A stretch of 63,862 nucleotides of DNA, the filler included, from Candidatus Hydrogenedentota bacterium (GTDB taxonomy: Bacteria; JBFMHD01), in NCBI GenBank assembly GCA_040752395.1. It is 5 parts of 5 records of this genome, joined end to end, with 100 filler letters (N's around TTAATTAATTAA, not from the genome) between each part and the next. Parts side by side here need not be neighbours in the genome. Positions count along the whole stretch, not along the records: positions 1 to 12,863 come from JBFMHD010000064.1; positions 12,964 to 25,789 come from JBFMHD010000065.1; positions 25,890 to 38,569 come from JBFMHD010000066.1; positions 38,670 to 51,295 come from JBFMHD010000067.1; positions 51,396 to 63,862 come from JBFMHD010000068.1. One strand, written 5' to 3'. The notes beneath the pieces are model-generated. The model had not been told where the DNA came from. It was given only the letters and a program-made list of their open reading frames with translations, and ran no database searches. Shown piece by piece: positions 2,663 through 57,430 of the stretch; the stretch's first letter is position 1, and each line of letters begins with the position of its first letter. The position numbers were made by a program, and so were the translations under genes.

Positions 2663-2821
2663 CTCCTCTGAAAAACGTTGTAACTCTAATAATATCAAAT
2701 AGAAGCAAGAAGCAAGATAAACAAACATCTGGTTTTTCATCCTTTGTGTAGAGCGCAAAAACCCAAAAACGCAATAACCCAATAACCCAAGAACCCAATA
2801 GTGTAGAGCGCAAACCGCGCT
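2663..2821 (-). repeat. Modular intergenic element (2 GTAG-REP-like units, TTGGGTTA array, CTTGCTT array, SD end module)
   Basis: On the minus strand it ends ...ATTAGAGTTACAACGTTTTTCAGAGGAG, 8 nt before the MNT start. Nearly identical to 57312-57430. Confidence 0.85.
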
Positions 2822-2960
2822 ATTGTGGTCATACTCAAAGAGCTCAGGAGTTCTGACTCAATTGATACTCCAATTATCTTACTTCTATAAAAATAGTAAC
2901 ACAACTATAAAAAGATAACAAGAAAAAACGTCCAGAAATTATACTACAATCATTCTGCCT

Positions 2961-3004
2961 GATTTATTAATCTCTTATTATGGATATTCCAGACTCCGTG
3001 ATAT
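2961..3004 (+). repeat. Direct repeat copy 2 (duplicated aroC 3' end)
   Basis: Identical to 902-945. Confidence 0.9.
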
Positions 3005-3013
3005 GAACCGGGA

Positions 3014-3478
3014 TTAAATAGAAAGGAGTTTGTCTTTATCAAAAACAAAGTTTTCCCTTTTATAATCTGCGATACCTGTTTTAGATGTCAGCTCCAGTGC
3101 ATCGCATGGACAGACCTCCTGACAGAACCCGCAAAATATACAGCGTAACTCATCTATAACAAATTCTTTACACACCTTCTCTCTGTCACTCCAGCCTGAT
3201 TCTTCAGCTACTATTGATATACATTTTGAGGGACATACTGTAGCACATATAAAACACGCTACACACTTTGGTCTCCCATACTCGTCTTTTTTTAATCTAT
3301 GTATACCACGGTACCTTTCTCCTTTATATCCTGACTCTTTTGGATAATTTATTGTATATGGTTTTTTAAAGCTATGTTTCAAAGTAACTAATAGCCCTTT
3401 AATAATTGCAGGCAATGCTATCGTATCAATTAAATCTTCTTTTAATTCGACATTTTTTACATAATCTTTTCCCTGCAT
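3014..3478 (-). CDS. nuoI: NADH-quinone oxidoreductase subunit I
   Basis: RYRGIHRL; two CxxCxxCxxxCP ferredoxin motifs. Confidence 0.92.
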   Translation of the reverse strand: MQGKDYVKNVELKEDLIDTIALPAIIKGLLVTLKHSFKKPYTINYPKESGYKGERYRGIHRLKKDEYGRPKCVACFICATVCPSKCISIVAEESGWSDREKVCKEFVIDELRCIFCGFCQEVCPCDALELTSKTGIADYKRENFVFDKDKLLSI

Positions 3479-3488
3479 ACTATTACCA

Positions 3489-3594
3489 CTCCTCTGAAAA
3501 AGTTCGAGGTTCGGAGTTCGGAGTTCGGAGCTCGGATCTATTATTACGAACTCCTAACTCCTATCTTTCCCCTACTTTGTGCCTTTGTGCCTCT
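3489..3594 (-). repeat. Modular intergenic element (GGCACAAA and GGAGTTC/GAACTCC inverted arrays, TTTTTCAGAGGAG end)
   Basis: Heptamer arrays between nuoG and nuoI; SD lies 10 nt before the nuoI ATG. Confidence 0.8.
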
Positions 3595-3598
3595 AATT

Positions 3599-5029
3599 TT
3601 AATACACCTCGCTATGCCCTGACACCCGTTTATATACCCCTTTTAAAATATCATACTCATTAATATTTGTTAATACAGCTGGTTTAAAAGATTGTTGTTT
3701 ATTATTCTGATTTATAAAACTACCCTCTTTCTCAAAACATAAAGTGCCTGCAATTCTAATACTGACGTTCTCAAACAAACAATTATCATTAAATGGTGTA
3801 AATATAATTATCTCTTTTATCTTTCTAAACTCATCTTTAATAATGTTTTCTGGCGAATAGTCAAACAATATAACTGTATCATAACCATCAAGATTTTCTA
3901 TCTTTTCAATCTTTTGGGAAAATATCTTTTTGATCCCATTTCTATTAGGAGTCCTATCAGCGGGGATTGTAAATTTAGGGAATATAATCTCTTTGCCATC
4001 TTCTTTAAATAAGACCATTACTTTCAACGATAGATAATCTGCTAATTTTTTTATCATAAGGAGCTCTTCAATAGTCTGGTAAGGCGAAATTATCACACAG
4101 ACTTTATCTTTGTTTTTTAATAAAGTATTAGCTATTGTATCCATTGCTTCAGGAGCTTGAACAACTCTATCTCTTATTTTATTTTCAGTTAATCTTGGTC
4201 TATGATATAACCATTTATATGTAAGCCTGCCTATATCGCACATCCAGTGCGAGTTTATTTTCTCATTAAATCTCGGTCTTATTCTGTAGACAATGTTATT
4301 ATTATAGTCTAAATAGATATTGCAGCCTTTTGAACAGCCCGGACAGATAGCTTCAACAGTCTTTAAAAACCACGCTCTCTGCTTAAATAAAAAGCTTTTA
4401 CTGACAAATGCGCCAACAGGGCAGAGGTCAACAAGGTTCATAGACAAAAGATGGTCTATCCTTCTATTGAAAAAAATATCAAGCTCAGAATAAACACCGC
4501 GCTTTAATATAGTAAGTCCGTAATTACCTGATATATATTTCTCAAACCTTATACAGCGGGTACACATAACACATCTATTTGAATAAAGTAAAATACGTTC
4601 ACCCACGTCTTTTTTACCTCGAATTATTTTATCTTCACTAAATCTCGATTTATTCTGTTCAAATGTGTATGCATAATCCTGAAGCTTGCATTCACCAGCC
4701 TGGTCACAGATCGGGCAATCAAGCGGATGATTTAACAACAAAAATTCTATCATTGCTTTTCTTGTCTTTTTAATCGTATCAGAATTTGTTATTACAATCA
4801 TACCATCAGCCACCTCAGTACCGCAGGCTATCTGTAACTTTGGCATCATCTCTATTTTATCTTTCTTCTGTAGTCCTATCTCAACAAGACAGGTTCTGCA
4901 GGACCCACTTACAGTTAATTCTGGATAATAACACAAATAAGGTATCTGTATATTATTTCTTAAAGCGAGCTGTAGAACTGTTTCGCCTTTCCTGGCTTCT
5001 AAAACCTTTCCATCAATCACTACTCTCAA
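3599..5029 (-). CDS. nuoG: NADH-quinone oxidoreductase subunit G (short form)
   Basis: GSCRTC, HPLDCPICDQAGEC, CVMCTRC, CPVGA, CPGCSKGC Fe-S motifs. Confidence 0.88.
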   Translation of the reverse strand: MRVVIDGKVLEARKGETVLQLALRNNIQIPYLCYYPELTVSGSCRTCLVEIGLQKKDKIEMMPKLQIACGTEVADGMIVITNSDTIKKTRKAMIEFLLLNHPLDCPICDQAGECKLQDYAYTFEQNKSRFSEDKIIRGKKDVGERILLYSNRCVMCTRCIRFEKYISGNYGLTILKRGVYSELDIFFNRRIDHLLSMNLVDLCPVGAFVSKSFLFKQRAWFLKTVEAICPGCSKGCNIYLDYNNNIVYRIRPRFNEKINSHWMCDIGRLTYKWLYHRPRLTENKIRDRVVQAPEAMDTIANTLLKNKDKVCVIISPYQTIEELLMIKKLADYLSLKVMVLFKEDGKEIIFPKFTIPADRTPNRNGIKKIFSQKIEKIENLDGYDTVILFDYSPENIIKDEFRKIKEIIIFTPFNDNCLFENVSIRIAGTLCFEKEGSFINQNNKQQSFKPAVLTNINEYDILKGVYKRVSGHSEVY

Positions 5030-5061
5030 TTTTCTCTTTCCTCCAGTTATTACTCTCCCAT

Positions 5062-6327
5062 TTATTGTCTTGGAATTATTATGGTTTTTTTAATTGCTTC
5101 TTCGAACTCAGTTCTAAATTTAGTAATAAAACTTTCAACAGGTATAACAGCCGCATCACCAAACGGACAGACAGTCTTAAATTTTATATTCGAACATATA
5201 TCAAGCAAGAGGTCCAGATCTTCAGGTTTGCCATCACCCTTATATATCCTTCGTAAAATTTTCATAATCCAGATAGTTCCCTCTCGGCAGGGTGTGCATT
5301 GACCACAGGATTCATGAGCATAAAACCGCGATAAATTATATAATGACCTCACCATTGAGGTATCTTCATCAAGCACAATAATACCGCCTGACCCAAGCGC
5401 TGACCCGGCTTTGATAAGTGAATCAAAATCCATAGGAATATCTATCTCATCAAATTTTAGTACTGGTGTAGAGGAACCGCCCGGGATCACTGCTTTTATC
5501 TTTTTGCCATCCTTTACGCCGGCTGCATAGTTCTCTATTATCTCTCTTAAATTCGTTCCAAGTGGCAGTTCATACACCCCCGGTCTATTAACTCTGCCTG
5601 AGACACAAAATAACTTGGTTCCGCCATTATTAGGCGTACCAATAGAAGCAAACCTAACTGCACCATTTAGAATTATATACGGGATATTCGCTAATGTTTC
5701 TACATTATTTATTATTGTGGGAGATTGGTATAAACCTTTAGTAGCCGGGAATGGTGGTCTTATTCTTGGCCAGCCGCGTTTGCCCTCAAGCGATTCAAGT
5801 AACCCTGTCTCTTCACCGCAAACATAAGCACCTGCACCACGATAGACTGTGATCTCGATATCGATATTCCTGCCTAAAATATTTTTCCCAAGATAATTCT
5901 TATTTTGTGCTTCTTCAATCGCTTTATTTAATATCTCTGAGCCTTCCCTGAATTCGCCCCGTATATAAATAAACGCGTGTTTCACTGATAAAGCATAAGA
6001 AGATATAAGTATCCCCTCAATTAAAAGATGTGGATTATTCCATATAATCCATTTATCTTTAAAAGTGCCTGGCTCGCTCTCATCAGCATTACAACATAAA
6101 TATACGGGTCTTCCTGAATCTTTAGGAACAAAGCTCCATTTTAATCCAGTTGCAAAACCAGCGCCTCCCCTGCCACGCAGCGTAGATCTTTTAACCTCTT
6201 CAACTATTTCATCTTTTTTCATATCAATGGCTTTTTTAAGAGCATCATAACCGCCTGTGCTTTCATAACCCGAAAGAGTATACAAATCTTTTTTATCTTC
6301 ATACTTCATTATAATTTTTTCAGTCAT
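5062..6327 (-). CDS. nuoF: NADH-quinone oxidoreductase subunit F
   Basis: LRGRGGAGF, NADESEPGTFKD, GAGAYVCGEET, ESCGQCTPCREG. Confidence 0.96.
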   Translation of the reverse strand: MTEKIIMKYEDKKDLYTLSGYESTGGYDALKKAIDMKKDEIVEEVKRSTLRGRGGAGFATGLKWSFVPKDSGRPVYLCCNADESEPGTFKDKWIIWNNPHLLIEGILISSYALSVKHAFIYIRGEFREGSEILNKAIEEAQNKNYLGKNILGRNIDIEITVYRGAGAYVCGEETGLLESLEGKRGWPRIRPPFPATKGLYQSPTIINNVETLANIPYIILNGAVRFASIGTPNNGGTKLFCVSGRVNRPGVYELPLGTNLREIIENYAAGVKDGKKIKAVIPGGSSTPVLKFDEIDIPMDFDSLIKAGSALGSGGIIVLDEDTSMVRSLYNLSRFYAHESCGQCTPCREGTIWIMKILRRIYKGDGKPEDLDLLLDICSNIKFKTVCPFGDAAVIPVESFITKFRTEFEEAIKKTIIIPRQ

Positions 6328-6799
6328 TGTCTTCTATCTCTTTCAATATCTTATCAATCTTGTTTTCATTCAGTTCTTCATAAAATTTACCATTAATCTG
6401 CATCACAGGCGCTTTCCCGCAATTCCCTAAACACTCAACCTTTAATAAAGTAAATTTACCATCCTGTGTTGTTTCACCTGATTTTATACCTAATCTATTT
6501 TCAAGATAATCTATAATATGGTCACTACCCATAAGAGAGCAGGATAAAGTAGCGCAAACCTCGATAACATATTTACCTTGCTTCTTTTTCTTTAACATTG
6601 TATAAAACTGGAAAGTATTATGCATCTCAGTAGCCGGGATATTTAAAACTTCTGATAATTCAAGTATAATCTCATCTGAAACATAAGAATAATTATCCTG
6701 AAGATAATGTAGAATCATAAGCAACGCGGACCTTTTTTCTGGAAAAATACTACAAAACCCCTGTATTCTATCTTTATCTTCATCTCTTAAAATACTCAT
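6320..6799 (-). CDS. nuoE: NADH-quinone oxidoreductase subunit E
   Basis: CATLSC...ECLGNCGKAP 2Fe-2S motif. Confidence 0.93.
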   Translation of the reverse strand: MSILRDEDKDRIQGFCSIFPEKRSALLMILHYLQDNYSYVSDEIILELSEVLNIPATEMHNTFQFYTMLKKKKQGKYVIEVCATLSCSLMGSDHIIDYLENRLGIKSGETTQDGKFTLLKVECLGNCGKAPVMQINGKFYEELNENKIDKILKEIEDND

Positions 6800-8016
6800 C
6801 TATCCATCTCACCTGCAATAACATTCATACTCGCGAGGATACCTACAATGTCAGAGATTAAATGTCCTTTTGACATATATGGTACTGCATTAATATGTAA
6901 AAATGAAGGCGGTCTCACCCTGACTCTATAAGGTTTATCCGTTCCATCAGATACAATATAAAACCCAAGCTCACCATTAGGTGCTTCAGTTGGGACATAA
7001 GCCTCTCCCTCTCGTGGTCTTATACCATGACCATCCATTATGAGCTTGAAATGATGTATAAGTTCTTCTGCACTGGAGATATAATTTTTGCCATTCTGAG
7101 TCGGACAGGCAATATTATATTCGTCAAGTATATATTTACCTGACGGCACATTGTTCACAGCCTGATTAATAATTTTTATAGACTGCCTTACTTCTTCAAG
7201 CCTGACAAGATATCTTGAATATACATCACCTTTATAAGCCAGTGGTATCTCAAACTCAAAATCCTCATAACTCGAATACGGCTCAAGCTTTCTTATATCT
7301 CTCGGTTCACCGCTTGCACGTAAAGCAGGTCCTGTGATCCCAAGATTTATAGCATCTTCTCGCAAGATACACCCGATATTTCTTGTTCGATTAATCCATA
7401 TTTTGTTTTTTGTTAATAAAGTATCTATATCATTAAGTACCCGGATATGATTTTTTGTAAACTCTCTAATCATCTGATAAGATTTAGAAGTAAAATCTTT
7501 AGCAACACCGCCTATCCTTATAAATGAGGTTGTCATTCGTGCGCCGGAAATCTCAACAAAAATATCATAAATCTTCTCACGCTCCTGAAAACCATAGAAA
7601 AACGGAGTCATTGCACCGATATCAACCGCGTGTGTACCGAGCCAGACCATATGGTCAGCTATCCGCGATAACTCCGCAAGTATAATTCTTAAAACTTCAG
7701 CTTTTTTAGGCGCCTTTATCTCAAGGAGCTTCTCTACTGATAAACAATAGGCAAGATTATTACATAAAGGTGATAAATAATTCATTCTGTCAGTAACAGC
7801 GATATATTGATGATAAGACATACTCTCAGCCTGTTTCTCAAACCCGCAATGAAGATAACCTATGCGTGCCTTAATATTTTCAATTATCTCACCATCAACC
7901 TCAGCTTCAAAATGTATGGTCCCATGCATCGCGGGATGTGAAGGACCTAAATTAAGAAATATCGTCTTCTTGCTATTAGTCTGCACGTTCAACCCTCGGG
8001 AAATGATCTCGTTCAC
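6796..8016 (-). CDS. nuoD: NADH-quinone oxidoreductase subunit D
   Basis: GPSHPAMHG, GYLH, DRMNY, EAPNGELG, GEMDR. Confidence 0.95.
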   Translation of the reverse strand: MNEIISRGLNVQTNSKKTIFLNLGPSHPAMHGTIHFEAEVDGEIIENIKARIGYLHCGFEKQAESMSYHQYIAVTDRMNYLSPLCNNLAYCLSVEKLLEIKAPKKAEVLRIILAELSRIADHMVWLGTHAVDIGAMTPFFYGFQEREKIYDIFVEISGARMTTSFIRIGGVAKDFTSKSYQMIREFTKNHIRVLNDIDTLLTKNKIWINRTRNIGCILREDAINLGITGPALRASGEPRDIRKLEPYSSYEDFEFEIPLAYKGDVYSRYLVRLEEVRQSIKIINQAVNNVPSGKYILDEYNIACPTQNGKNYISSAEELIHHFKLIMDGHGIRPREGEAYVPTEAPNGELGFYIVSDGTDKPYRVRVRPPSFLHINAVPYMSKGHLISDIVGILASMNVIAGEMDR

Positions 8017-8479
8017 CTATTCCTTTAAGCGGATACCCTTTTCTTAACGGATGACTCTCAAAATTTTCAGGCAGTAATATCCTTTCAAGACAGGGATGGT
8101 CAAAAAACTCGATCCCGAACATATCATAGACTTCACGTTCTAACGATATAGCTGATTTCCATAACCCTGATACTGATCTCACTTTTTGGTCTTTATTTAT
8201 ATAGGATTTGATCCTCAGTCGTATATTTTTAAGAGTAGAATATAATTGATATACAATATCAAAACCCTCTGACTTACCACTAAGCTTTAATTCACTTGTA
8301 TCAATCGCGGTAATATCTATTAAAAAATCAAATGTAGGTTTGAGAAACTCCATAACAGAATAGATAGAATCTTTATCTATTCTGACTATACAATCCCCCC
8401 TATCGATTAACTTTTCTTTTATGTACTTTTTAAATCTATCGTCCAAAGAATCCAATACGGATTGGAGTAGGTCGTTCAT
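7976..8479 (-). CDS. nuoC: NADH-quinone oxidoreductase subunit C
   Basis: EREVYDMFGIEF..HP.L.RIL...HPLRK.YP. Confidence 0.93.
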   Translation of the reverse strand: MNDLLQSVLDSLDDRFKKYIKEKLIDRGDCIVRIDKDSIYSVMEFLKPTFDFLIDITAIDTSELKLSGKSEGFDIVYQLYSTLKNIRLRIKSYINKDQKVRSVSGLWKSAISLEREVYDMFGIEFFDHPCLERILLPENFESHPLRKGYPLKGIGERDHFPRVERAD

Positions 8480-8942
8480 CTCGCTCCTTTTTACCAGTTC
8501 TTATTAAATCCTGTATTCTGAAGATACCTTCAAGCAAATCTTCAGCTGATGGCGGACACCCCTGAACATAAACATCCACAGGGATGAACTTATCAATGCC
8601 CTGACATACAGCATAGTTATCAAACAATCCGCCTGATGATGCGCAGGCTCCCATAGATATACACCATTTAGGTTCGGGTATCTGTGACCAGATTCTAATT
8701 AGTACAGGCATAAGTTTTATAGGTACTCTGCCTGCAACAATCATTAAATCAGCCTGTCTCGGTGAAAACCTTAAGAATTCAGACCCGAACCTGCCTAAGT
8801 CATATCTTGACGCAGCAGCTGCCATCATTTCGATACCACAGCACGCAGTGCCAAATGGCATAGGCCACATAGAATTCCGCTCCGCCCATTTAATAATCTC
8901 ATCTATTCTCGTAATAACAAAAAATTTCTCAAGCGCTTCCAT
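8436..8942 (-). CDS. nuoB: NADH-quinone oxidoreductase subunit B
   Basis: GTACCGIEM, SPRQAD, GACASSGG, GCPP. Confidence 0.96.
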   Translation of the reverse strand: MEALEKFFVITRIDEIIKWAERNSMWPMPFGTACCGIEMMAAAASRYDLGRFGSEFLRFSPRQADLMIVAGRVPIKLMPVLIRIWSQIPEPKWCISMGACASSGGLFDNYAVCQGIDKFIPVDVYVQGCPPSAEDLLEGIFRIQDLIRTGKKERDERPTPIRIGFFGR

Positions 8943-9010
8943 ATTGTTGATAAACTATAACTCCTCTCTTTTTTCGTCAAGCTGAAATGTGAACTTCGGG
9001 TATTCCCTCA

Positions 9011-9099
9011 GAACGTGTGAAATAATCATCATTAATACTGGGCAACTCTTTTATTATCAGCCCCTATTTTCTGAAAAAGTCTAATTTTTTCACACGTTC
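9011..9099. mobile_element. 89-bp MITE, copy 1
   Basis: 12-bp TIRs GAACGTGTGAAA/TTTCACACGTTC flanked by TCA...TCA; second 89-bp copy at 58633-58721. Confidence 0.75.
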
Positions 9100-9146
9100 T
9101 CAGTCTTCAGTGGGATTCCGTAATCTTGCTTCTTGCTTCTAAAGTA

Positions 9147-9180
9147 TAAGTTCTACTGCACCAATAACCGAGGCTTTACA
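9147..9180 (+). repeat. 34-bp dispersed repeat
   Basis: 31/34 match to the reverse complement of 35668-35701. Confidence 0.75.
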
Positions 9181-9331
9181 ACTTCGGTATTATGTAAACT
9201 TATTAAAAATCCAATTTTGGGTATTGACTTTTTAGAAGATTGAATATATAATTATAAATAAAATAGGAGATCAATATAGAAAAAAGTATCTCTAAACAAG
9301 GTAAGGTAAAATAACAGGGAGGTGAACCGGT

Positions 9332-9553
9332 ATGGCGGCACAAATACAGCCAATTAATGGAATACAAAATAATGAAGACAGAATAAGAGCACAGGTACAA
9401 GCAGCAAATCAAACAACAGAACAACAGATTCCAAGAGGTGTGGTCGAACCAACAAATACTACAGGCAGCGTCTATGAACAGATAAGAGAAAGGGTTCTAG
9501 AAGAAGCTCTTGGTAACAATGGCCAGGGTCAGCAATTAAACATTATAGCATAG
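9332..9553 (+). CDS. Small Q/N-rich hypothetical protein
   Basis: Strong SD GGAGGTGA. C-terminal GQQLNIIA resembles the ends of YjfB-like small proteins (weak). Confidence 0.6.
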   Translation: MAAQIQPINGIQNNEDRIRAQVQAANQTTEQQIPRGVVEPTNTTGSVYEQIRERVLEEALGNNGQGQQLNIIA

Positions 9554-9622
9554 TAATTATTCGCATAAAAAAATCAAATCTTTTTTTTTGACTTTTAAAA
9601 AGTAACGTTATACTATAATATT

Positions 9623-10054
9623 ATGCGTTTAAATTTTTTTATTAAGATTCTGCTCCTTTGTCTTTTGTTTGATGCTGTTAGCTGTACTACGACAAATGAC
9701 AAGATTATTTCAAACCCCACCTACTCTATAGTTAAATCAAAATATTATTATACTGATATTGATTCTGTTTTAAGAGTTATTTATGAATTTATAAGGGAGC
9801 AAAACGGTAGCATTATATTTGAAGATTCTTATCATATACATTTTCAAACTACTCTACAGAGTGAGAATATCCTGATTTCAAAAGAGGTCCAGTATAAGAT
9901 CCTCATTTTTAAAGATCTGAATGCTACAAAAGTAACTCTTAACATCTTTGAAGTTTCAGAGAGTTTAGGCCGTACTATTGAACCCTCATCTAAAATATCC
10001 CAGAAACTCTATAAACAATTCTGGGTTTATCTTGATAAAAGACTAAGTTATTAA
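9623..10054 (+). CDS. Hypothetical lipoprotein
   Basis: Hydrophobic N-terminus ending AVSC. Confidence 0.55.
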   Translation: MRLNFFIKILLLCLLFDAVSCTTTNDKIISNPTYSIVKSKYYYTDIDSVLRVIYEFIREQNGSIIFEDSYHIHFQTTLQSENILISKEVQYKILIFKDLNATKVTLNIFEVSESLGRTIEPSSKISQKLYKQFWVYLDKRLSY

Positions 10055-10659
10055 CTAATCTGCAAAAGCAAATCACCAGCCTCTTTTAAAAAAATTTTAT
10101 CCGGTAATTTCATTAAAAGGTCTTTATATTCCTCTGAAGAAGCAATACTTTTCCGATGTTTTTCTGGTATGTATTTGTATATAAATTCAATCATAACAAG
10201 AGGTGGTAAGGTTTCATATATTTTATCAAGGCCGTTTTTCTTTGTTATATATCCTTTAATATTTTCTAAATCTTTTATAATTTCGTTTTCATAATATCGC
10301 GGTAATATTAACTTTATAAACTTCAAATAAGTGTTTCCTCTCTTGAGAGATTCTAATATGCATCTTTGTTTTAGATTATCAGGTAAATCACAAGCAAGTT
10401 TTTTAATGCTACCTCTCTGTGGAAACTTCTTAACGATTTTTTCAATAAATTCGTCTTTGTCTATTTTACCCATTATAAGTAGTTTCAAATCTATCTCAGA
10501 TGGCAAAATATGTTTCATATTGCCTAATTTAATAATTGTATTTTTGTTGGTATATATTTTATAGATAGTATACAAACCCTGTAATTCATTATAAAAAAGA
10601 TATATAAAAATAGCAGCGGGAATTAAAGCTATCAGAAATAAAATAATAACTTTTTTCAA
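10051..10659 (-). CDS. Hypothetical protein with N-terminal TM/signal
   Basis: 202-aa ORF translationally coupled to the upstream gene. Confidence 0.6.
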   Translation of the reverse strand: MKKVIILFLIALIPAAIFIYLFYNELQGLYTIYKIYTNKNTIIKLGNMKHILPSEIDLKLLIMGKIDKDEFIEKIVKKFPQRGSIKKLACDLPDNLKQRCILESLKRGNTYLKFIKLILPRYYENEIIKDLENIKGYITKKNGLDKIYETLPPLVMIEFIYKYIPEKHRKSIASSEEYKDLLMKLPDKIFLKEAGDLLLQIS

Positions 10660-11132: not shown

Positions 11133-11137
11133 AAAAT

Positions 11138-11207
11138 CCTCTCCTGTGAAAAACATTGTAATTATAATAATATCAAGTAAAAGCAAGAGGCAAGAGACAA
11201 GAAGCAA
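11138..11207 (-). repeat. Modular intergenic element (CTTGCTT array + SD end module)
   Basis: Minus strand reads TTGATATTATTATAATTACAATGTTTTTCACAGGAG just before the phosphoesterase ATG. Confidence 0.8.
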
Positions 11208-19173: not shown

Positions 19174-19174
19174 T

Positions 19175-49632: not shown

Positions 49633-51053
49633 CAGAGGAAAGAGTTTTTACAGGAAGAAGTCATAAAGATGCTATTACTAAAGTGAGAGAGGAGTTTGGT
49701 GAAGAAGCGATAATTTTAACTTCACGAAAATTAAAAGATAGATATGAAATCATAGCACGGGCTAATAAAAATCATTTTGATGATAAAAGCAGAATAAAAA
49801 AATCTTATGATATTAAATTACTGCAACAAAAACTGAAAGAAGAGATGGAGCGCAGGCGAAAGGCCAAAGATAATGCAGAAAAATTAAAAACCGATATATC
49901 ACTTGTCTCAGACGACGAGGTATTTCTTAAATTTTCTAAAGAACCGTATGAGGAGGCAGAGGAAGCCAAACCTCTTACTTACAAAAATATCTTAAAAATA
50001 AGACGATATACACCGGAAAAACCGAAAGTAGACAAAAACGAGATTGGAGATGGCGTTTATAAAGAAGTTGCCGATGATGAAACAACGACTATAAGAAAAC
50101 ATAACTTACAAAACGAGATAATTAAACAGTATAATCATTCATATCGTGAAACAAACAAAAGAATAGAACATTTCGAAGATATACTTAAAAACCTGCAAGA
50201 AAAAGTGAATGAGGTCTTCAATAAAATATCAATAGTTGAAGGAAGCCAGAAAAAAATTCATCATCCTGTAATAGAAAAATTCAGGATACATCTTGTTAAT
50301 AAAGGTATCGATAAAGAAATAATCGCGGATATTGTAAACAAAGTGGGACGAGAGTTAAAAGAAAGAAAAGATATCAATGATGATTTAATAAAAGAGATGT
50401 TTGTAAAAGAGATTAGAAGGTCTTTTTCTATAGGAAATATAAAATTTGGCAGTATGGATAACAATTTTGAGCTTGTGGTTTTAATGGGGCCTGCTGGTTG
50501 TGGCAAAACAACAACGTTAGTTAAGATGGCGAGATTGTTAATAAAAGAGTATAAAATGAATATCGGTATTGCAACTATGGATTATCAGAAAGTTGGTGCC
50601 AAAGAACAGATAGGAAGGTATGCCCGAGTTTTAGATGTCCCTGTGTTATACGTTACAAAACCAGTTGAAATGGATAAAAATCTCAGTATATTTGCGCGAG
50701 ACAAAAGCGTGATACTTTTTGATACCCCGGGTTTTACTCCTTCACTTGGAAAGGAGAATATACAGAATATGAAGAGGTATCTACAATTTTTTAAAAATCC
50801 CTGTAAAAAAATTTTAATTCTTCCTGCAACATGGAAAACTGAAGACTTAAAACGGCTTATTAAATCGTATGAAGAATTAAAAGTCACAAGTTATATTTTT
50901 ACTTCTATTGAAGAGACAGTTAATACAGGAAATATTTTTAATATAATGTATCGTTCTGAAGTAAATGAAATTTTATGGACTTCTGGTGCGTCGCCAACAG
51001 GTAGAATTTATATACCTCAAAAAGACGAGTTCATCAATCGGCTAATAAATTAA
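49629..51053 (+). CDS. flhF: SRP-type GTPase FlhF
   Basis: N-terminal ..A...VREEFGEEAIIL; GPAGCGKTTT, DTPG; follows flhA. Confidence 0.85.
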   Translation: MTEERVFTGRSHKDAITKVREEFGEEAIILTSRKLKDRYEIIARANKNHFDDKSRIKKSYDIKLLQQKLKEEMERRRKAKDNAEKLKTDISLVSDDEVFLKFSKEPYEEAEEAKPLTYKNILKIRRYTPEKPKVDKNEIGDGVYKEVADDETTTIRKHNLQNEIIKQYNHSYRETNKRIEHFEDILKNLQEKVNEVFNKISIVEGSQKKIHHPVIEKFRIHLVNKGIDKEIIADIVNKVGRELKERKDINDDLIKEMFVKEIRRSFSIGNIKFGSMDNNFELVVLMGPAGCGKTTTLVKMARLLIKEYKMNIGIATMDYQKVGAKEQIGRYARVLDVPVLYVTKPVEMDKNLSIFARDKSVILFDTPGFTPSLGKENIQNMKRYLQFFKNPCKKILILPATWKTEDLKRLIKSYEELKVTSYIFTSIEETVNTGNIFNIMYRSEVNEILWTSGASPTGRIYIPQKDEFINRLIN

Positions 51054-51098
51054 TAATTATTACTTGCAAAATATTACAATAATAGATAATATTTATTT

Positions 51099-51295
51099 GT
51101 GTACAAAAATGGACGGATTTTATTACTCTCTTTTTTGTTTGCAGTAATAGTTATTATTATAAGATTTGCATTTTCTTTGATTTTTAATTGGATAGATAAT
51201 TTATTTTTTTATAAAACTGCTTTTATCGGGATTGGAACATTTTGTATAGCGTGGTTTTGTTTGAGTTATATATTTATGGAGGAGGAGGTAAAATT
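51099..51295 (+). CDS. Small membrane protein (3' partial)
   Basis: Two hydrophobic segments; cut by the contig end. Confidence 0.4.
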
Positions 51296-51395: not shown

Positions 51396-51583
51396 GCCCC
51401 CTATGAAAAGTCTTGAGTCTTGAGTCTCGAGTCCTGTTTTGACTCACGACTTGCGACTCACGACTTGCGACTCACGACTCACGACTCTTTTTATATCATC
51501 TTTAGTTTTTCATACCTTGTGTAGAGCGCAACCCGCGCTCATGAGTACTCCTTCGAAAAACTTCGGAGTTCGGAGTTCGGAGC
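51396..51583 (-). repeat. Modular element downstream of serS (GAACTCC array + SD, REP-like end, expanded GAGTCGT/AAGTCGC core)
   Basis: Reverse complement of the core at 12670-12783 with extra heptamers. Confidence 0.9.
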
Positions 51584-51743
51584 AGAGTATTTGTTCGGTT
51601 TTGTGTGGGTTTGTTTATGTGTGTGGAATTTACTGCGAGGCAGGCTGCGAAGTCTTCCTTGACAATTATTTTGTTTTTACACCGAACATCCCTGTCCAGC
51701 TATTACTTCCTATCTCCTCTATCGTCAATAGTTTTCGAAAACT

Positions 51744-53018
51744 TTATGATTTAATAATATTTTTGCCAACTATATCTCTTAAAACCTCTGGCACTATTAT
51801 AAAACCTTCTTCTGTCTGATAGTTTTCCATTATAGCAATAAGTGTTCTACTTATAGCTACCGCTGTTCCATTTATCATATGAACGAATTTTTTATCACCA
51901 TTTAGAGTTTTATATTTTATATTTAACCGTCTTGATTGATAATCAGTGCAGTTAGAAGTAGATGTAATTTCACCAAAGTCGCCTTTTTCCCCGCGGCCAG
52001 GCATCCAGGATTCAATATCAAATTTTCTATAAGCAGGTGCACCGAGCTCCCCACTGCATACTTCTACTATTCTGTATGGAATTTTTAAATCCTGATATAT
52101 TTCTTCTTCTATTTGAAGAAACTTTTCATGAATAGTATCAGAATCCTCTTGTTTTGTAAAAGCGAACATTTCTACTTTAGAAAATTGATGGACTCTAAAA
52201 AGCCCTTTAGAATATTGTCCATAAGCACCTGCCTCTGTTCTAAAGCAGTGTGAAAAACCGCAGTATAAAAGGGGTAACTCTTTCTCATATAAGATACAAT
52301 CTGAAAGCATACCAGCCAGCGTTATCTCAGCAGTACCCACAAGACATAAATCAAAGTTTGCTATAGAATAGATATTTGTCTCAGGTCCGCGGGGATTAAA
52401 ACCTGCTCCTTCAACTATTTCGCTTCGTGCAACATCAGGTGTGATTATTAATGTAAACCCCTTTTTTTGAAGTTTTTTTAAAGCAAAAACACAAAGAGCA
52501 AACTCAAGTAATACAGCCTCTTTTTTTAAGTAATAAAACTTCTGTTGGGATACCCTTGATGCTGTGTCAAAATCTATCAAATCAAGTTTTTGACCAAGCG
52601 ATATATGATCAAGTGGTTTGAAATTAAATACAGGGATATCACCCCATCGCTTTATTTCTCTATTAGAGTGTTCATCTTTACCTACAGGTATATGAGGGTG
52701 AGTGAAATTAGGTATTTTTTTGAATAGTTCCCAGAATTTTTTATCTATATCCTCATACTCTTTTTCAATGATAGATAATTCGTTTTTTATATTTTTACCT
52801 CTTTCTACCAGCGTATTTTTCTCATCAATAGCCACTTTCTGTTTAAGTTTATCAGCGATAGTATTTCTTTCGCATCGTAATTCTTCAATTCTTTTTATTA
52901 ACTCGAGACGTTTATTATAGAATGATATAACCGCATCAAGGTCGAGATTAAGATTTCTATTACGGAGATTTTGTTTTATCTCATTGTATTTTTCTTTTAA
53001 TAATTTTGGGTCGAGCAA
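51744..53018 (-). CDS. serS: Serine--tRNA ligase
   Basis: GTAE, CFRTEAG, RVHQFSKVE, EITSTSNCTDYQSRR, NGTA. Confidence 0.97.
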   Translation of the reverse strand: MLDPKLLKEKYNEIKQNLRNRNLNLDLDAVISFYNKRLELIKRIEELRCERNTIADKLKQKVAIDEKNTLVERGKNIKNELSIIEKEYEDIDKKFWELFKKIPNFTHPHIPVGKDEHSNREIKRWGDIPVFNFKPLDHISLGQKLDLIDFDTASRVSQQKFYYLKKEAVLLEFALCVFALKKLQKKGFTLIITPDVARSEIVEGAGFNPRGPETNIYSIANFDLCLVGTAEITLAGMLSDCILYEKELPLLYCGFSHCFRTEAGAYGQYSKGLFRVHQFSKVEMFAFTKQEDSDTIHEKFLQIEEEIYQDLKIPYRIVEVCSGELGAPAYRKFDIESWMPGRGEKGDFGEITSTSNCTDYQSRRLNIKYKTLNGDKKFVHMINGTAVAISRTLIAIMENYQTEEGFIIVPEVLRDIVGKNIIKS

Positions 53019-53487
53019 GTATATTCTCCTTTTTAAGTTCTATAAATTCGTCTAAAAAATTATCATAATAAAAAACATAGGATTCTTTATTTTCATTTGT
53101 CAGTATTATTCTCTTATTATTATCAGTAATTTCAAGTTTAAAGTGATACGCAGGAACAATATCATTTTTATATATTTCGTATAATTTAAATTTATTTTCG
53201 CAGGATAATAAAGAAAGCAAGGCAAATCCATTGTTATCTTTTTTGATAACAAAAAATACATAATCAAAGATACGGTCATTGTTTATATCAGCAACTTTAT
53301 AAAACGGGTATTGGGCTGTTACTTTATAGATATTATCCCAGTATTTAATTATATCTTCATAACAAGCAAGCCTGTATTCCTCGCTAATATTTTCCGTATA
53401 TTTCTTTAATATAAGCTCAATATCACTATCATCAGAATAACAGGAACAAAAAAATAATATAAACAATAGAAGCAGTGTCCCTTTCAT
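52981..53487 (-). CDS. Hypothetical exported/lipoprotein
   Basis: Signal ending FCSC; ADINND...D motif. Confidence 0.5.
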   Translation of the reverse strand: MKGTLLLLFILFFCSCYSDDSDIELILKKYTENISEEYRLACYEDIIKYWDNIYKVTAQYPFYKVADINNDRIFDYVFFVIKKDNNGFALLSLLSCENKFKLYEIYKNDIVPAYHFKLEITDNNKRIILTNENKESYVFYYDNFLDEFIELKKENILARPKIIKRKIQ

Positions 53488-53538
53488 AATAGGTTATTTT
53501 ACAGACTCAGTTTAGATTGGTCAAGGAGTGGTTTACTC

Positions 53539-53554
53539 TAACTGAGGCATTACA
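53539..53554 (+). repeat. Dispersed repeat TAACTGAGGCATTACA (short copy)
   Basis: Identical to 980-995. Confidence 0.6.
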
Positions 53555-53578
53555 AATTGTCGAATGAGATGGGGCAAT

Positions 53579-54592
53579 CTACGATAATAATTTAGATATT
53601 AAGAGTTCGGTTTCAGTGGCTCTAATCTTTTCAGAAGATGTTTTTAATGATTTTTCTAAATAGGCTAAAGTCTCTTCAAGTTTATTTAAAAAAGAATCAT
53701 CAAGACGGGAATACTTTGGCAGATTGTTCTTCTGATGATAATTTAATGGTTTTGAAAATAGCGCTTTACAGAAGTCTTCTACTTTACAGAGTGGATTCTT
53801 GATGTTTTCGTCTAACAGGTATTTGTAATATTTAATTATTCTGAGATTTTTGATACATACAGAAATAAAACCTAATAAAGAGATATCCTTTATTACATAA
53901 TTTTTAAATTCCTTTAAAAATTTTGCTAAATTTCTATCAAAAATTGAATCTAAAAGACCAAAGAAATCGTCTTGTATATAACTAACCCTTAGATTTTTCA
54001 GCTCATTTAACGTAATAATAGATTTATTTTCACCTAAAAATGTCTTTAATTTCAAAAGCTCAGGTAATATCCTTGAGGGGGAATAACCATATTCTTCAAT
54101 AAAATATCTGATAGCATCATTACTCAATTTTAATCCCAATTTGTCACCCTCTTCTCTTATGAATTCGATAAAATCATATTTATCAGGAGTCTTTATCTCA
54201 ATAAATGAATTATTTTGCTGAAACATTGTTATTATTTGTTTCATCTCTTTTATACTGCCTTTTGAATCAATGAGTAATAAAAGGCAGTCAGGATTAGTAG
54301 ACTTTAGAAAAGGACTCAGTAGTTTTTTATCCTCAATATCTTCAATACCTCGATAGAATATACATCTTAAAGAAGCAAACATATCACAGGTTGAATAAAT
54401 CTCAAAAAGTTTCTCTATAGCTAAATCAGGGTAAGAATATTTAAGTATTGATAGATTATTAATATTTTTTACTCTCTTTTCTATATCGAAGGTATAATTT
54501 TTTATAAGTAAACCATCATCACCAGAGATTAGATAAACGCCCCCGGTAAACTTATTTTCAAGTTGTTTTAAAAGTTTAAAAGACATAAGCAT
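53579..54592 (-). CDS. holA: DNA polymerase III delta subunit
   Basis: VYLISGDD, EL.KL, F.L.D; size and lptE-holA order. Confidence 0.72.
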   Translation of the reverse strand: MLMSFKLLKQLENKFTGGVYLISGDDGLLIKNYTFDIEKRVKNINNLSILKYSYPDLAIEKLFEIYSTCDMFASLRCIFYRGIEDIEDKKLLSPFLKSTNPDCLLLLIDSKGSIKEMKQIITMFQQNNSFIEIKTPDKYDFIEFIREEGDKLGLKLSNDAIRYFIEEYGYSPSRILPELLKLKTFLGENKSIITLNELKNLRVSYIQDDFFGLLDSIFDRNLAKFLKEFKNYVIKDISLLGFISVCIKNLRIIKYYKYLLDENIKNPLCKVEDFCKALFSKPLNYHQKNNLPKYSRLDDSFLNKLEETLAYLEKSLKTSSEKIRATETELLISKLLS

Positions 54593-54646
54593 TTAACCTC
54601 AAAACCATACTACCAGGCCAAAAAGAAAGCAAACTCAACTGATTTA

Positions 54647-55201
54647 TTATTGGCTTTGAGATCTCTGCTCCTGGTAAGACTCAGCTTCAGGCCAGCCCTC
54701 AATAACTCTTGAGACAATATCCTTTGCCAGATCCAGGGCAGCTCTATATTTAGCATCTTTTTCAGTCTCAGGCGTAGAAGCCACAACAGAAAAACTCGCT
54801 TCGCCAGATAGATAACCGCCTGTCTGAGTATAGTCTTCAAAAAGTAATTCGTTCTTTACTTTATCGTAAAACCTTATTCGAACACTAATCTTTAATCTGT
54901 TTTCTGTCACAATATTTTTCACATAATCCCAGGCAATCGGCTGTACTTCATATTTTGTTATAACACCCTCTAAAACAGCATGGGCTTCTGATTCTTTATC
55001 TACAATCTGTAGTCTCCCATCCTTTAAAAATTCACCTATAACAGTATTTGTAACGTCTACCTCAAGGTTATATTCACCAACTTCGTTTACGAACTTTTTC
55101 ACATAAATTTTTTCTATATAAGTTGGGAGTTCCAGTTTTACTTCATAACATGAAGCAAATAATAAAGGTATCAATAATAATAAAATAATTTTATTTTTCA
55201 T
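54647..55201 (-). CDS. lptE: LptE-family lipoprotein
   Basis: Lipobox FASC, IYV..FVN, A.AVLEG.I, C-terminal W. Confidence 0.7.
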   Translation of the reverse strand: MKNKIILLLLIPLLFASCYEVKLELPTYIEKIYVKKFVNEVGEYNLEVDVTNTVIGEFLKDGRLQIVDKESEAHAVLEGVITKYEVQPIAWDYVKNIVTENRLKISVRIRFYDKVKNELLFEDYTQTGGYLSGEASFSVVASTPETEKDAKYRAALDLAKDIVSRVIEGWPEAESYQEQRSQSQ

Positions 55202-55236
55202 AACCTCTAACCTCCGGATACGGCGACCACGCTATC

Positions 55237-55974
55237 TTACGAATATGGGTCATATTTAGAATGAACTTTTTTTGATTCAACACTTCGTTCGCCGCTAATT
55301 TTTAATAGTTCAGAAGCCATCTCGTTTAAAAACGATGGGGTCTCATTATCATATTGAGATGCTTCTTCAAAATACTTTTTAGCAAGTTCAAACGAGTTCT
55401 GTCTGAAATATGTCATCCCTACCATAAAACATATTTCCCGCTTCTTTGAGCTTTCAGGAAATCGGGTTAAAATTTCAAGATATTTTTCTCGCGCAAGAGT
55501 CCATTCCTCAACCCTGTCAAGACAATAACCCCATCTGAATAATACCTCGTCTATTATATTACTATTTGGATTATCTGTATAGAGTTTTTTATATAAAAAA
55601 GAAGCTTCTTCAAACTTTTTAAGTTCTTCAAGACATAAACAAGAGAGAAAACCAGCTTCGTTTCTATGAACGGATTGCGGAAACTCGAGGTAGAAATCTA
55701 AAAAAGATTTATGGGCTTCCTCCCACTGATGTAATTCTTTATGTATAAAACCTTTTAATAGTTTGGAAACTAAATAATATGGTGATTTAGAATCTTTAAT
55801 TAACCACTCTATTAAAGTTAAGGCTTTAGAAAAATTTTTTAGCCTGTAATATATTATTGTATATGAATAAATATAATTAGGATTAGTTGGTTCGATGTTA
55901 TTTGAGTTTAACAACATTAAAGCTTCTTCATATCTTTCATTATCTATCAAGTCTCTTAATCTATCATCAATCAT
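55237..55974 (-). CDS. Tetratricopeptide repeat protein
   Basis: Repeated TPR helices with FP.S/NP.S turns. Confidence 0.8.
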   Translation of the reverse strand: MIDDRLRDLIDNERYEEALMLLNSNNIEPTNPNYIYSYTIIYYRLKNFSKALTLIEWLIKDSKSPYYLVSKLLKGFIHKELHQWEEAHKSFLDFYLEFPQSVHRNEAGFLSCLCLEELKKFEEASFLYKKLYTDNPNSNIIDEVLFRWGYCLDRVEEWTLAREKYLEILTRFPESSKKREICFMVGMTYFRQNSFELAKKYFEEASQYDNETPSFLNEMASELLKISGERSVESKKVHSKYDPYS

Positions 55975-56555
55975 AGGAGTTTTTTATAGATATTTTGTGT
56001 TTTTATTGGTCCAAATTTTATGCATTGAATTAAAATTTCTACTATATTATCTAATATCTTTTCTAATTCGTTTATTTCGGTCTCTGTGAAATTACTTAAA
56101 ACATAATCTTTTAAATCTACGTTTTTAATTCTTGGCCCAATACCTATTCTTAACCTGAAAAAATCGTTTGAGTTGAAATGATAAATAATATTTTCAATAC
56201 CATTATGTCCCCCTGCACTTCCCCCTCTCCTGAACTTTATCTCGCCAATAGGTAAATCAACATCATCATAAATTACAAGTAATTGCGAGGAAGTAAGAGA
56301 TAAAGAATTAAAAGCACTGATTACTGATTCTCCTGAAAGATTAACGTAAGTCAAAGGTTTTAATAATGCAAAAGAACTACCACCAATGTTTCCACTACAG
56401 AAAAATCCTTTATATTTTTTTCCCCACTTTAGGATACCAATTTTTTCAAACAACCTGTCAATAACAATAAACCCTATATTATGCCTGGTATAGACGTATT
56501 CTTTTCCTGGATTACCCAGACCTACTATCAAAAACTCCACATTGGTTCTTTTCAT
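55971..56555 (-). CDS. pth: Peptidyl-tRNA hydrolase
   Basis: GLGNPG..Y..TRHNIGF, GGHNG, RLRIGIG. Confidence 0.96.
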   Translation of the reverse strand: MKRTNVEFLIVGLGNPGKEYVYTRHNIGFIVIDRLFEKIGILKWGKKYKGFFCSGNIGGSSFALLKPLTYVNLSGESVISAFNSLSLTSSQLLVIYDDVDLPIGEIKFRRGGSAGGHNGIENIIYHFNSNDFFRLRIGIGPRIKNVDLKDYVLSNFTETEINELEKILDNIVEILIQCIKFGPIKTQNIYKKLL

Positions 56556-57304
56556 TTTTTCGGTGGCTTTTCAGTTGGTTTCTCTTTTTTATCCTGTGTT
56601 TGAGCTGTTTCTTTAGCCTTTGCTTCTTCTTTTGCTTTTGGCTTTTCTAAAGGAGTAGCAGCAGCACCTTCTTCAACCTCTTCTTCTTCTTCTTTGCCTT
56701 TCTTAATAACCTCAGGCTCTTCAACAGCAGCTTTAGATACCTCGAGCTCTTCTTCCTTAGCTGGCGGCACTACCACTACAACGGTCTCATCCTGCGAATG
56801 CAAAACTTTTATTTTATCAGAAAATTTTAATTCTTTTATATGCAGAGCATCATTTATTTTCAAATTGCTGATATCTACTTCTATTTTTTCAGGAATATCT
56901 AAAGGCAGACATTTAATCTTGATACTTTTAAGGAGTATATCCAGGATACCACCCATTTTAATGCCAGGTGAAATGCCTGTGATTGTAATAGATACATTTG
57001 TTGTAACTTCCTCATCAAGCTTTATGTTTTGAAAGTCAAAATGAATTATTTTATCTGTTACTACATCCTTTTGAATAGCCTTGATAATGACAGGATATTT
57101 TTTACTATTTAGCTCAACCTCGAATAATTTTATTTTTTTATGAAGTATCCTGTCTAATTCTTTTGGATTGATTAATATAGGTATTGGTTCTATCGAGGAA
57201 CTATATATTATTCCGGGTATATCACCATTTCTACGAATAAAACGCACTAATGATTTGTTACCTGTATCTCTTTTTGTGACTTTTATAGTTAATAACTCAG
57301 CCAT
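56552..57304 (-). CDS. rplY: 50S ribosomal protein L25/Ctc
   Basis: RRNGDIPGIIY, H.DF, CLP.DIPE.IEVDIS.L. True start is the ATG at 57304. Confidence 0.93.
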   Translation of the reverse strand: MAELLTIKVTKRDTGNKSLVRFIRRNGDIPGIIYSSSIEPIPILINPKELDRILHKKIKLFEVELNSKKYPVIIKAIQKDVVTDKIIHFDFQNIKLDEEVTTNVSITITGISPGIKMGGILDILLKSIKIKCLPLDIPEKIEVDISNLKINDALHIKELKFSDKIKVLHSQDETVVVVVPPAKEEELEVSKAAVEEPEVIKKGKEEEEEVEEGAAATPLEKPKAKEEAKAKETAQTQDKKEKPTEKPPKK

Positions 57305-57311
57305 TTGCTTA

Positions 57312-57430
57312 TCCTCCTCTGAAAAACGCTGTAACTCTAATAATATCAAGTAGAAGCAAGAGGCAAGAAGCAAGAAGCAAGATAAACAAACATCTGGTTT
57401 TTCATACGTTGTGTAGAGCGCAAACGCGCT
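57312..57430 (-). repeat. Modular element between prs and rplY
   Basis: REP-like end, CTTGCTT array and ATTAGAGTTACAGCGTTTTTCAGAGGAGG, which supplies the rplY SD. Confidence 0.9.

Follow-up and report, generated by a model that had tools for sequence, protein, structure and literature searches.

Hairpin mosaics with a Shine-Dalgarno-bearing end in the intergenic spacers of a Hydrogenedentota bacterium

Several genes of a Candidatus Hydrogenedentota bacterium (GCA_040752395.1), among them fliM and rplY, have nearly the same 28 nucleotides, including a Shine-Dalgarno (SD) sequence, a few bases before their start codons. Do these nucleotides belong to the genes or to a repeat that occupies the spacers in front of them, and if the latter, what kind of repeat is it? 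The question arises from a stretch of 63,862 nt (the window; G+C content ~34%), which comprises five whole contigs joined by N linkers (1-12863, 12964-25789, 25890-38569, 38670-51295 and 51396-63862). Our analysis of host DNA covered this 64-kb window, and we compared it to relatives and to one contig, L002, of a metagenome-assembled genome (MAG). The best foreign match of the seryl-tRNA synthetase (SerRS) is 72% identical, the second 61% and the following ones 53-58%, in proteins labelled from several phyla, so the organism has few sequenced relatives. The explanation we favor, with about even confidence, is that the repeats are gene-less hairpin cassettes resembling intervening sequences (IVSs), forming a species-specific collinear mosaic that ends in a leader and ribosome-binding site (RBS).

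Tandem arrays with a period of 6-9 nt and at least 2.5 copies merge into 45 loci in the window, compared to a mean of 2.7 and at most 6 when its dinucleotides are shuffled 20 times. Of these 45 loci, 31 are intergenic, though open reading frames (ORFs) cover ~86% of the window. The motif GTGTAGAGCGC has six matches at ≤1 mismatch, all of them intergenic, against a shuffle mean of 0.29 (maximum 2); in four copies a loop and GCGC(T) come directly behind it. Further, dispersed copies have stretches of 46-62 nt in common at 92-98% identity. We scanned for seven modules: a GC hairpin (M1, ...GCGCTCTACAC), a linker (M2, GTATGAAAAAC), the cores of a GAGTC/GACTC hairpin (M3) and of a GGCT/AGCC hairpin (M4), a unique piece (M5), a CTTGCTT array (M6) and an end module (M7). 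Each module is optional, and the order M1<M2<M3<M4<M5<M6<M7 is kept on one strand in each of the nine composite elements, of which eight lie in the window and one on L002. The only stray module match outside composite elements is a one-mismatch M2 inside serS. The number of array units varies between copies, from 2 to 7 in the GAGTC arm and from 2.4 to 4.4 in the CTTGCTT array. These observations support one repeated, modular family, which by its order and variable internal copy number is a collinear mosaic intergenic repeat of the type of BOX and BIME (bacterial interspersed mosaic elements). We counted ~15 intergenic repeats, with no copy of the family on the second contig (12964-25789), in line with the first-pass annotation of this DNA, which had described about 14 elements on four of the five contigs. 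Its gene names at the nuoG/nuoI, fliL/fliM and prs/rplY junctions were also correct: Pfam confirms NuoG, a NuoI-type protein, MNT, Metallophos_2, FliL, an Asp protease, FliM, FliP/Q/R, Prs and L25.

All modules of an element lie on the strand of the downstream gene. One element, E4, is on the plus strand, while the other three elements of its contig and their genes are on the minus strand, which suggests that orientation follows transcription rather than replication; this is a single case, in which the gene that E4 faces lies beyond the contig end.

The end module (28 nt, ATTAGAGTTACANNGTTTTTCAGAGGAG) has six matches in the window at ≤3 mismatches and none in 100 shuffles. On the minus strand, it precedes the GTG at 2654 of an MNT gene (module at 2663-2690), the ATG at 11132 of a Metallophos_2 phosphoesterase gene whose Pfam match begins at residue 1 (11141-11168), and the ATG at 57304 of the L25 gene, rplY (57314-57341). 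On the plus strand, it precedes the ATG at 38551 of a gene cut by the contig end (38512-38539), the ATG at 40152 of the Asp protease gene (40111-40138) and the GTG at 40752 of fliM, whose product has the N-terminus MTDILSQD (40718-40745). For the phosphoesterase, FliM and L25, the assigned start has the support of a Pfam alignment or a conserved N-terminus. In all six cases the start codon lies 6-13 nt past the last G of the module, in the same orientation. L002, a MAG contig of 2198 bp, contributes a seventh full module, 9 nt before a small ORF, so that 7/7 full copies are co-oriented with a start 6-13 nt downstream and hold an SD-like GAGGAG at a working distance from it. The first-pass annotation had already placed the module before co-oriented starts, albeit within a narrower range of 6-11 nt. 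A short form of the end, TTTTTCAGAGGAG, lies 10 nt before the nuoI ATG at 3478. When aligned, the eight ends are invariant through TTTTT..A..GGAG, that is, through the U-run and the GGAG, and unrelated beyond it.

The organism uses canonical SDs: among 57 crude gene models, the SD match is ≥4 nt long in 37, ≥5 nt in 29 and ≥6 nt in 9, and AGGAG is the commonest SD in the window. The SDs of the modules stand out by their context. CAGAGGAG together with the preceding U-run is identical in five of the seven full modules and in the short form before nuoI, and SD contexts elsewhere in the window vary. Judged from sequence comparison, this favors the SD being part of the repeated unit.

The live alternative, which we consider rather unlikely on balance, is that the SD is native to each gene. 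Ancestral spacers of ~10-30 nt would have forced any insertion to end at the SD, and the identity through GGAG would reflect that the SDs are alike, AGGAG being common in the window anyway. Several observations in relatives agree with this. In a sample of 25 genomes from the phylum of the MAG (G001), we inspected by eye the 21 loci that have both prs and rplY; ~13 of the 21 junctions are compact, with the stop codon overlapping or touching the SD. Two sister loci (L015 and L016) have GGAGGTTTAAATG, the sequence from SD to start, in common, and a different array upstream of it. In another relative, G013, a terminal-inverted-repeat-like module, GTGGCTGAAyrGTTAC, occurs at 62 sites per 220 kb, five of them within 40 nt of a co-oriented start; these five are followed by variable SDs (AAGGAG, GAGGAC, AGAGGGG) 13-15 nt before the starts. 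Likewise, the 3' arrays of the IVS-protein cassettes described below stop a few bases before the variable SD of the next gene. Against an SD native to each gene stand the identity of the CAGAGGAG 8-mer and the U-run, and the diverged copies of the module (CACAGGAG, AATGGGAG), which are substituted in the SD part about as often as in the rest. Moreover, two copies of the E4/E5 type lie in long divergent regions, where nothing forces an element against an SD. The earlier proposal that the element donates the SD is in agreement with the window, where identity runs through the GGAG, and is weakened by the relatives, where hairpins stop a few bases before variable native SDs.

The predicted folds show where structure resides in the elements. 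The array hairpins consist of helices of 4-6 bp every 7 nt, separated by small internal loops (z -1.8 to -5.4), and 10 of 11 predicted inverted-pair hairpins have z -1.8 or below; the unique hairpin reaches z -7.2. The first-pass annotation had described hairpin elements; the array modules do fold beyond shuffles, but the small GC hairpin with GTGTAG, with its 5-bp stem, is no better than shuffles (z -1.2). The nesting of modules that it had placed at 38214-38540 is confirmed in E5 (38205-38545), which has a minimum free energy (MFE) of -123 kcal/mol (z -7.8) and a ~25-bp closing stem around three inner hairpins. In both the MFE and the centroid structure of E5, the end module and its SD remain outside the structure.

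An 8-bp complementarity between TGAAAAAC in the linker and GTTTTTCA in the end module flanks the body of the six elements that hold both, with a mismatch in one of them. The two segments pair in the MFE and centroid structures of one folded spacer, and not in another, and conservation extends beyond both sides. The complementarity may be the remnant of a terminal inverted repeat; by eye, the variable NN does not covary with the base after the linker. The stems have no T-run behind them on the sense strand, and GAGTC hairpins are flagged as terminator-like on the antisense strand only. There, at 38362-38380 and 40019-40038, T-rich tracts follow the GAGTC hairpins and give a terminator-like score. 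By their sequence, the elements might stop antisense transcription.

Hairpins built of heptamer arrays are a lineage-wide class, as supported by the relatives. We found 109 arrays in 220 kb of G013, compared to 45 in the 64-kb window, which is about equal density, and the unit AAGGCACA/AAGACACA is common to both. At the prs-rplY junction, 4 of the 21 relatives (L014, L016, L018, L032) have inverted arrays of unrelated units, as judged by eye.

The relatives also point to the nature of these hairpins. IVSs are located in helix 25 or 45 of 23S rRNA; the classical site of those excised by RNase III is helix 45, and IVSs without a gene exist. The 23S genes of three relatives (G018, G013, G001) are 3392-3484 nt long compared to the 2925 positions of the model, i.e. 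~470-560 nt longer, and those of G018 and G013 contain heptamer arrays. Aligned to the model with cmscan, the G018 gene has a 58-nt array hairpin in the loop of helix 45, the helix just before GGUAGGGGAGCG. Array hairpins in 23S genes of relatives are found in L089 (G013; 3505-3585 and 4085-4190) and L088 (2815-2885), the one at helix 45 of G018 being the only one placed on the model. The family of 23S rRNA IVS proteins, four-helix bundles (PF05635), has 4-22 genes per genome in 5/5 relatives, compared to 1/14 control genomes with any. Arrays lie beside the PF05635 gene in 10/10 inspected loci, and in 8/10 the gene sits between an array and its inverse (by eye). Based on the helix-45 site, the PF05635 flanks and the arrays in 23S genes, the heptamer-array hairpins of relatives appear to be IVS-type elements, and the long closing stem of E5 is of the kind that IVSs have. 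In Coxiella, an IVS that carries such an ORF is reported to be excised from helix 45 by RNase III (PMC4990558). Among the suggestions of the first-pass annotation, four-helix-bundle (TIGR02436-type) genes flanked by the modules were the most fruitful lead: arrays do flank these genes in relatives, but none is present among the 50 ORFs of the window.

For the gene-less, IVS-like cassettes that we favor, we infer co-transcription, RNase III processing, selfish spread and the belonging of the SD to the element. The cassettes are probably selfish or neutral DNA that colonizes the stretch between a stop codon and the RBS of the next gene, and they would be transcribed with the operon. The GC hairpin, just after the upstream stop, is followed by the linker, up to two beaded array hairpins, the CTTGCTT array and an end of 28 nt, which is predicted to be unstructured, is U-rich and bears GAGGAG. 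Going by the module order and the parallel to IVSs, the GC hairpin may protect the upstream 3' end, and the long stems may be processed by RNase III or stall exonucleases. The end module would then serve as leader and RBS of the downstream cistron, so that an insertion would not silence the gene behind it. A bolder version, which seems unlikely to us as a whole, makes the elements portable processing cassettes between cistrons: with 3' protection by the GC hairpin, RNase III cuts and a U-rich leader with RBS, they would split operons (nuo, fli, prs-rplY) into separately stabilized and translated mRNAs, and heptamer hairpins, 23S IVSs and four-helix-bundle cassettes would be one family of mobile insulators acting at the RNA level.

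A number of results weigh against the cassettes as we picture them. When folded over their full length, two spacers are no stabler than shuffles (z -0.24 and -0.76), and the SD of the module is of ordinary strength, at 5-6 nt, with 9 of the 57 gene models having matches of 6-8 nt. Hairpins of the same class abut native, variable SDs in relatives. Of the 50 window ORFs, which we scanned against all of Pfam-A, none matches PF05635; no window gene lies between inverted arrays, and the window contains no rRNA, an Rfam scan finding tRNA-Asn only. The link to IVSs therefore rests on distant relatives, whose Prs and L25 are 59-66% and 30-38% identical, with a SerRS at best as close as given above. 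We saw no direct repeat (target-site duplication) at the element borders by eye, and no empty site at close range; the orthologous prs-rplY junctions that were compared come from distant genomes. The mobility that the first-pass annotation had attributed to the element is thus putative.

Finally, the spread of the unique modules cannot be followed, because among the matches listed they occur only in the window and on one 2.2-kb MAG contig. In the scan of genome contigs for the end module, the matches listed were the real one on L002 (MAG210) and one chance match in a GC-rich genome. The remainder of L002's MAG (G001), whose genes are 63-72% identical to the window, contains none of the modules, and L002 may be mis-binned there. 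Among 61 relatives of G001, no further end-module copy was found at ≤2 mismatches besides two singletons, and a metagenome scan for the end module gave a single match, within apparent coding sequence, that we take as chance. In BLAST searches with E5 against 25 genomes, several modules together were matched only on the MAG contig, all other matches being arrays of 20-45 nt.

Besides a native SD, three explanations of the repeats have to be considered. The first, which we think improbable, is that they are phase-variable leader repeats, arrays of 7-8 nt that slip and so tune downstream translation or mRNA processing, like the simple-sequence repeats of some 5' untranslated regions (UTRs). The unit numbers given above vary as this would require. 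Heptamer arrays of Beggiatoaceae lie directly before starts and a translational role has been proposed for them (PMC4679880), and a Haemophilus paper reportedly ties 5'-UTR repeats, structure and RNase III together (PMC12721329). The genes downstream of the elements (nuoI, fliM, rplY), however, have housekeeping functions and are not typical contingency loci, copy number varies between loci and not between strains at one locus, and the complementary pairs of arrays point to structure rather than spacing.

Another candidate is the family of repetitive extragenic palindromic (REP) sequences and their REPIN doublets, mobilized by REP-associated tyrosine transposases (RAYTs, Y1 HUH enzymes), with GTGTAG and the GCGC hairpin as the recognized REP. 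GTAG is the defining motif of REPs, and the GTGTAGAGCGC copies, overrepresented and followed by loop and GCGC(T) as described above, are a repeated, extragenic GTAG next to an imperfect palindrome. In addition, Y1_Tnp genes are present in four of five relatives (G003, G005, G018, G001), and co-orientation could reflect strand-specific insertion of single-stranded DNA. We nevertheless consider this origin, proposed in the first-pass annotation, very unlikely, and it was not upheld. REPINs are inverted doublets of REPs that occur next to RAYTs (PMC3116915), but none of the six copies is in an inverted doublet and the sole adjacent pair (2746, 2801) is direct. The 5-bp stem does not fold beyond shuffles, as mentioned, and there is no Y1_Tnp among the 50 window ORFs, nor in G013 with its 62 terminal modules per 220 kb. 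Moreover, the collinear unit is larger and has this hairpin as just one of its optional modules. The earlier statement that the window holds no mobilizing enzyme was correct for the 50 ORFs scanned.

The last explanation, a shared cis-regulatory cassette in which the end module is a promoter or the site of one regulator and the downstream genes are a regulon, is hardly credible: although the module has TACAAT-like hexamers and E3 scores TTGCCT-18-TATTAT (9 of 12), just one of the five end modules in two scanned ranges was flagged in gene orientation (57314-57341 lies outside these ranges), the variable NN falls on the final two positions of the TACANN hexamer, one of them that of the critical last T, most copies lie inside operons before functionally unrelated genes, and promoter-like sites are not enriched (32 vs 27.5 ± 5.1 and 63 vs 54.1 ± 8.1), which leaves the promoter idea unsupported.

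The individual elements, taken in order along the window, show how the modules are combined. On the first contig, E1 (2655-2860, minus strand) fills the spacer from nuoI to MNT with two GC-hairpin modules that have an AACCCAA array between them, the linker, the CTTGCTT array and the end module. E2 (3479-3598, minus strand), in the nuoG-nuoI spacer, consists of a AGGCACAA array, a GGAGTT/GAACTCC hairpin (z -2.5) and the short end TTTTTCAGAGGAG. An isolated TCTTGCT array (9124-9140, plus strand) lies in the divergent region upstream of the nuo operon. E3 (11133-11213, minus strand) is the shortest form, a CTTGCTT-type array and an end module with three mismatches before the Metallophos_2 gene. 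E4 (12650-12863, plus strand) comprises the GC hairpin, linker, GAGTC hairpin, GGCT hairpin and the unique piece M5, with folds of z -5.4 and -5.2, and is truncated by the contig end. It is directed away from a divergent kch-like gene, on the strand opposite to E1-E3 of the same contig.

On the third contig, a TTATTTC/TTAATTC array followed by TTTTTAAGAGGAG (28177-28221, plus strand) ends 8 nt before a TTG at 28230, and a block of arrays between two large genes (30200-30345, plus strand) contains AAGCAAG, five AAGATTC, TTCTGCA and CTTGCTT. ORF 30200 starts inside this block; its 5' extension is probably false and the real start probably lies downstream of 30345. E5 (38205-38545, plus strand) is the full-length nested form, in which an outer AAGCAAG/CTTGCTT stem encloses a degenerate half of the GC hairpin, the unique hairpin, the linker, the GAGTC hairpin and the GGCT hairpin, followed by the end module and the ATG at 38551.

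The fourth contig opens with E6 (38670-38815, plus strand), the representative of a second family, in which 58-nt arms on either side of a CTTTGTGC array form a near-perfect palindrome (z -20); it lies upstream of the flbD ATG at 38840. AGGAGAC and TACTTCT arrays (39050-39110, plus strand) lie upstream of a promoter-like site of fliL (TTGACA-16-TATAAT, 39132-39159). E7 (39800-40138, plus strand), in the spacer from fliL to the Asp protease gene, is made up of AAGATTGA, TACTTCT, AAGGCACA and AGACAGG arrays, the linker, GAGTC and GGCT hairpins and a degenerate end module. E8 (40530-40745, plus strand), from the Asp protease gene to fliM, has an AGGCACA array, the linker, a GAGTC hairpin, a GGCT hairpin and the end module. 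The small, retropepsin-like Asp protease gene (40152-40529) thus sits between fliL and fliM with long, direct-oriented elements on both sides; in G001, a tRNA is followed by two tandem copies of it, which a heptamer hairpin separates (L005, 1444-2393). E9 (45190-45310, plus strand), in the fliP-fliQ spacer, corresponds to half of a second-family element, with 95% identity to 38755-38815 of E6, and ends in ...GCGACAGAGGAGG, 7 nt before the ATG at 45320. E10 (45625-45653, plus strand), in the fliQ-fliR spacer, is a GCAAGAG array that reaches the ATG at 45654.

On the fifth contig, E11 (51396-51590, minus strand), downstream of serS, is cut by the contig end and consists of a GAACTCC array with GTTTTTCGAAGGAG, the GC hairpin, the linker and a long GAGTC hairpin (z -5.1). 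E12 (57305-57450, minus strand) fills the prs-rplY spacer with the GC hairpin, linker, CTTGCTT array and end module, directly before the ATG at 57304. The rplY frame is open through E12 to a TTG at 57373, the real start probably being the ATG. We considered and rejected a leader peptide: in E11, a 10-codon ORF starts at an SD-ATG before the GC hairpin, but E4 and E12 have ATA in place of this ATG, and differences in loop length shift the frame.

Some other features of the window deserve mention. An intact cassette of MNT (2307-2654) and HEPN (1933-2322) genes follows nuoI, within the operon. A second MNT gene (43026-43361) is located between fliN and fliO, followed by ~340 nt without a long ORF (43026-43700 region), and is the best DNA match to G001 (72%) in the 4.9-kb stretch compared. 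A separate repeat resembles a miniature inverted-repeat transposable element of ~104 nt, with terminal inverted repeats CAGAACGTGTGAAA...TTTCACACGTTCTG and two copies, 88% identical, upstream of the nuo operon (9000-9103) and beside the tRNA-Asn gene (58622-58725). The 3' ends of the chorismate synthase gene (plus strand) and of nuoI (minus strand) each overlap one copy of an 84-nt direct repeat (877-960 and 2936-3019, 88%), the two copies therefore being on opposite coding strands. Two paralogous sigma-54-dependent response regulators (13356-14744 and 15358-16869), 2158 nt apart, have AAA+ cores of 71-75% DNA identity. Lastly, a restriction-modification island (58949-63862) encodes two N6_N4 DNA methylases, one of them fused to an SNase domain, and an MjaI-type endonuclease. 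Flanking it is a direct repeat of 205 nt (61069-61273 and 63658-63862, 89%), which spans a ParB-HTH gene plus a second, incomplete copy of this gene.

The repeat family has consequences for annotation and assembly. It explains why ORF callers run genes into repeats, as in ORF 30200 and the extension of rplY to the TTG at 57373, and it explains intergenic breakpoints of the assembly: four contig ends (12863, 38569, 38670, 51396) lie in or right beside repeat elements, as expected if the genome has many of them. Should the repeat truly carry the SD, it would be a selfish or semi-domesticated element that neutralizes its own polar effect on operons, and its copies would constitute a natural collection of insulated cassettes for translation initiation. 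Heptamer-repeat hairpins are widespread and unexplained, as are the four-helix-bundle proteins of 23S IVSs. Here, the hairpins are unusually organized, with a fixed order, strict co-orientation and a terminal leader plus SD, which offers a testable model of processing hairpins combined with a portable RBS. In the literature covered by our search, outside of which were older subscription papers and supplements, we found no description of heptamer-array hairpins with an SD-bearing end, nor of arrays that bracket IVS-protein genes. Hairpin arrays and collinear mosaics are already known; a mosaic repeat with the next gene's SD in its conserved end was likewise not found in that literature.

How do the elements compare to known systems? 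BOX elements of Streptococcus pneumoniae have the form boxA-boxB(n)-boxC, and BIMEs are enterobacterial. Like these, the window elements are intergenic and hairpin-forming, have a fixed order of optional modules with variable internal units, and encode no enzyme; we know of no BOX or BIME that ends in an RBS at a working distance from the next start. The MIRUs (mycobacterial interspersed repetitive units) of Mycobacterium tuberculosis are tandem units of 46-101 bp with small ORFs that overlap the stop and start codons of their neighbors. Both groups lie inside operons, co-oriented with the flanking genes and compatible with downstream translation. In the window, however, five of eight spacers have stops in all three frames and three have one open frame, and the solution is an SD and not translational coupling.

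Intergenic heptamer repeats have been described as GGGAATC in Xanthomonas and GGGGA(C/T)T in Nostoc, and resemble the window arrays in their tandem 7-nt units, mostly intergenic location and frequent convergent pairs that can form stem-loops, 70-75 pairs per Xanthomonas genome (PMC4692102). In comparison, the window has many unrelated units, a fixed order with unique modules, a link to gene starts and no G-quadruplex motifs. The TAACTGA arrays of Beggiatoaceae are similar in being forward heptamer arrays a few nt from the starts of unrelated genes, including ribosomal protein genes, but they are single direct arrays replacing the canonical SD (PMC4679880), whereas the window arrays form hairpins and a canonical SD follows. 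To REP/REPIN-RAYT systems (PMC3116915), the likeness is an extragenic GTAG-type motif next to a short palindrome; the differences are the lack of inverted doublets, the very short stem and the lack of a RAYT among the 50 window ORFs and in G013. The last comparison is to the 23S IVSs with an S23p or four-helix-bundle ORF, known from Coxiella and Leptospira (PMC4990558). In contrast to these, the copies in the window occupy spacers between protein genes, have no ORF, combine several hairpins into mosaics and end with an SD. Yet in both an extended stem closes the inserted segment, as the ~25-bp stem does in E5, and in relatives array hairpins of the same class are found at helix 45, in G018, and flanking PF05635 genes.

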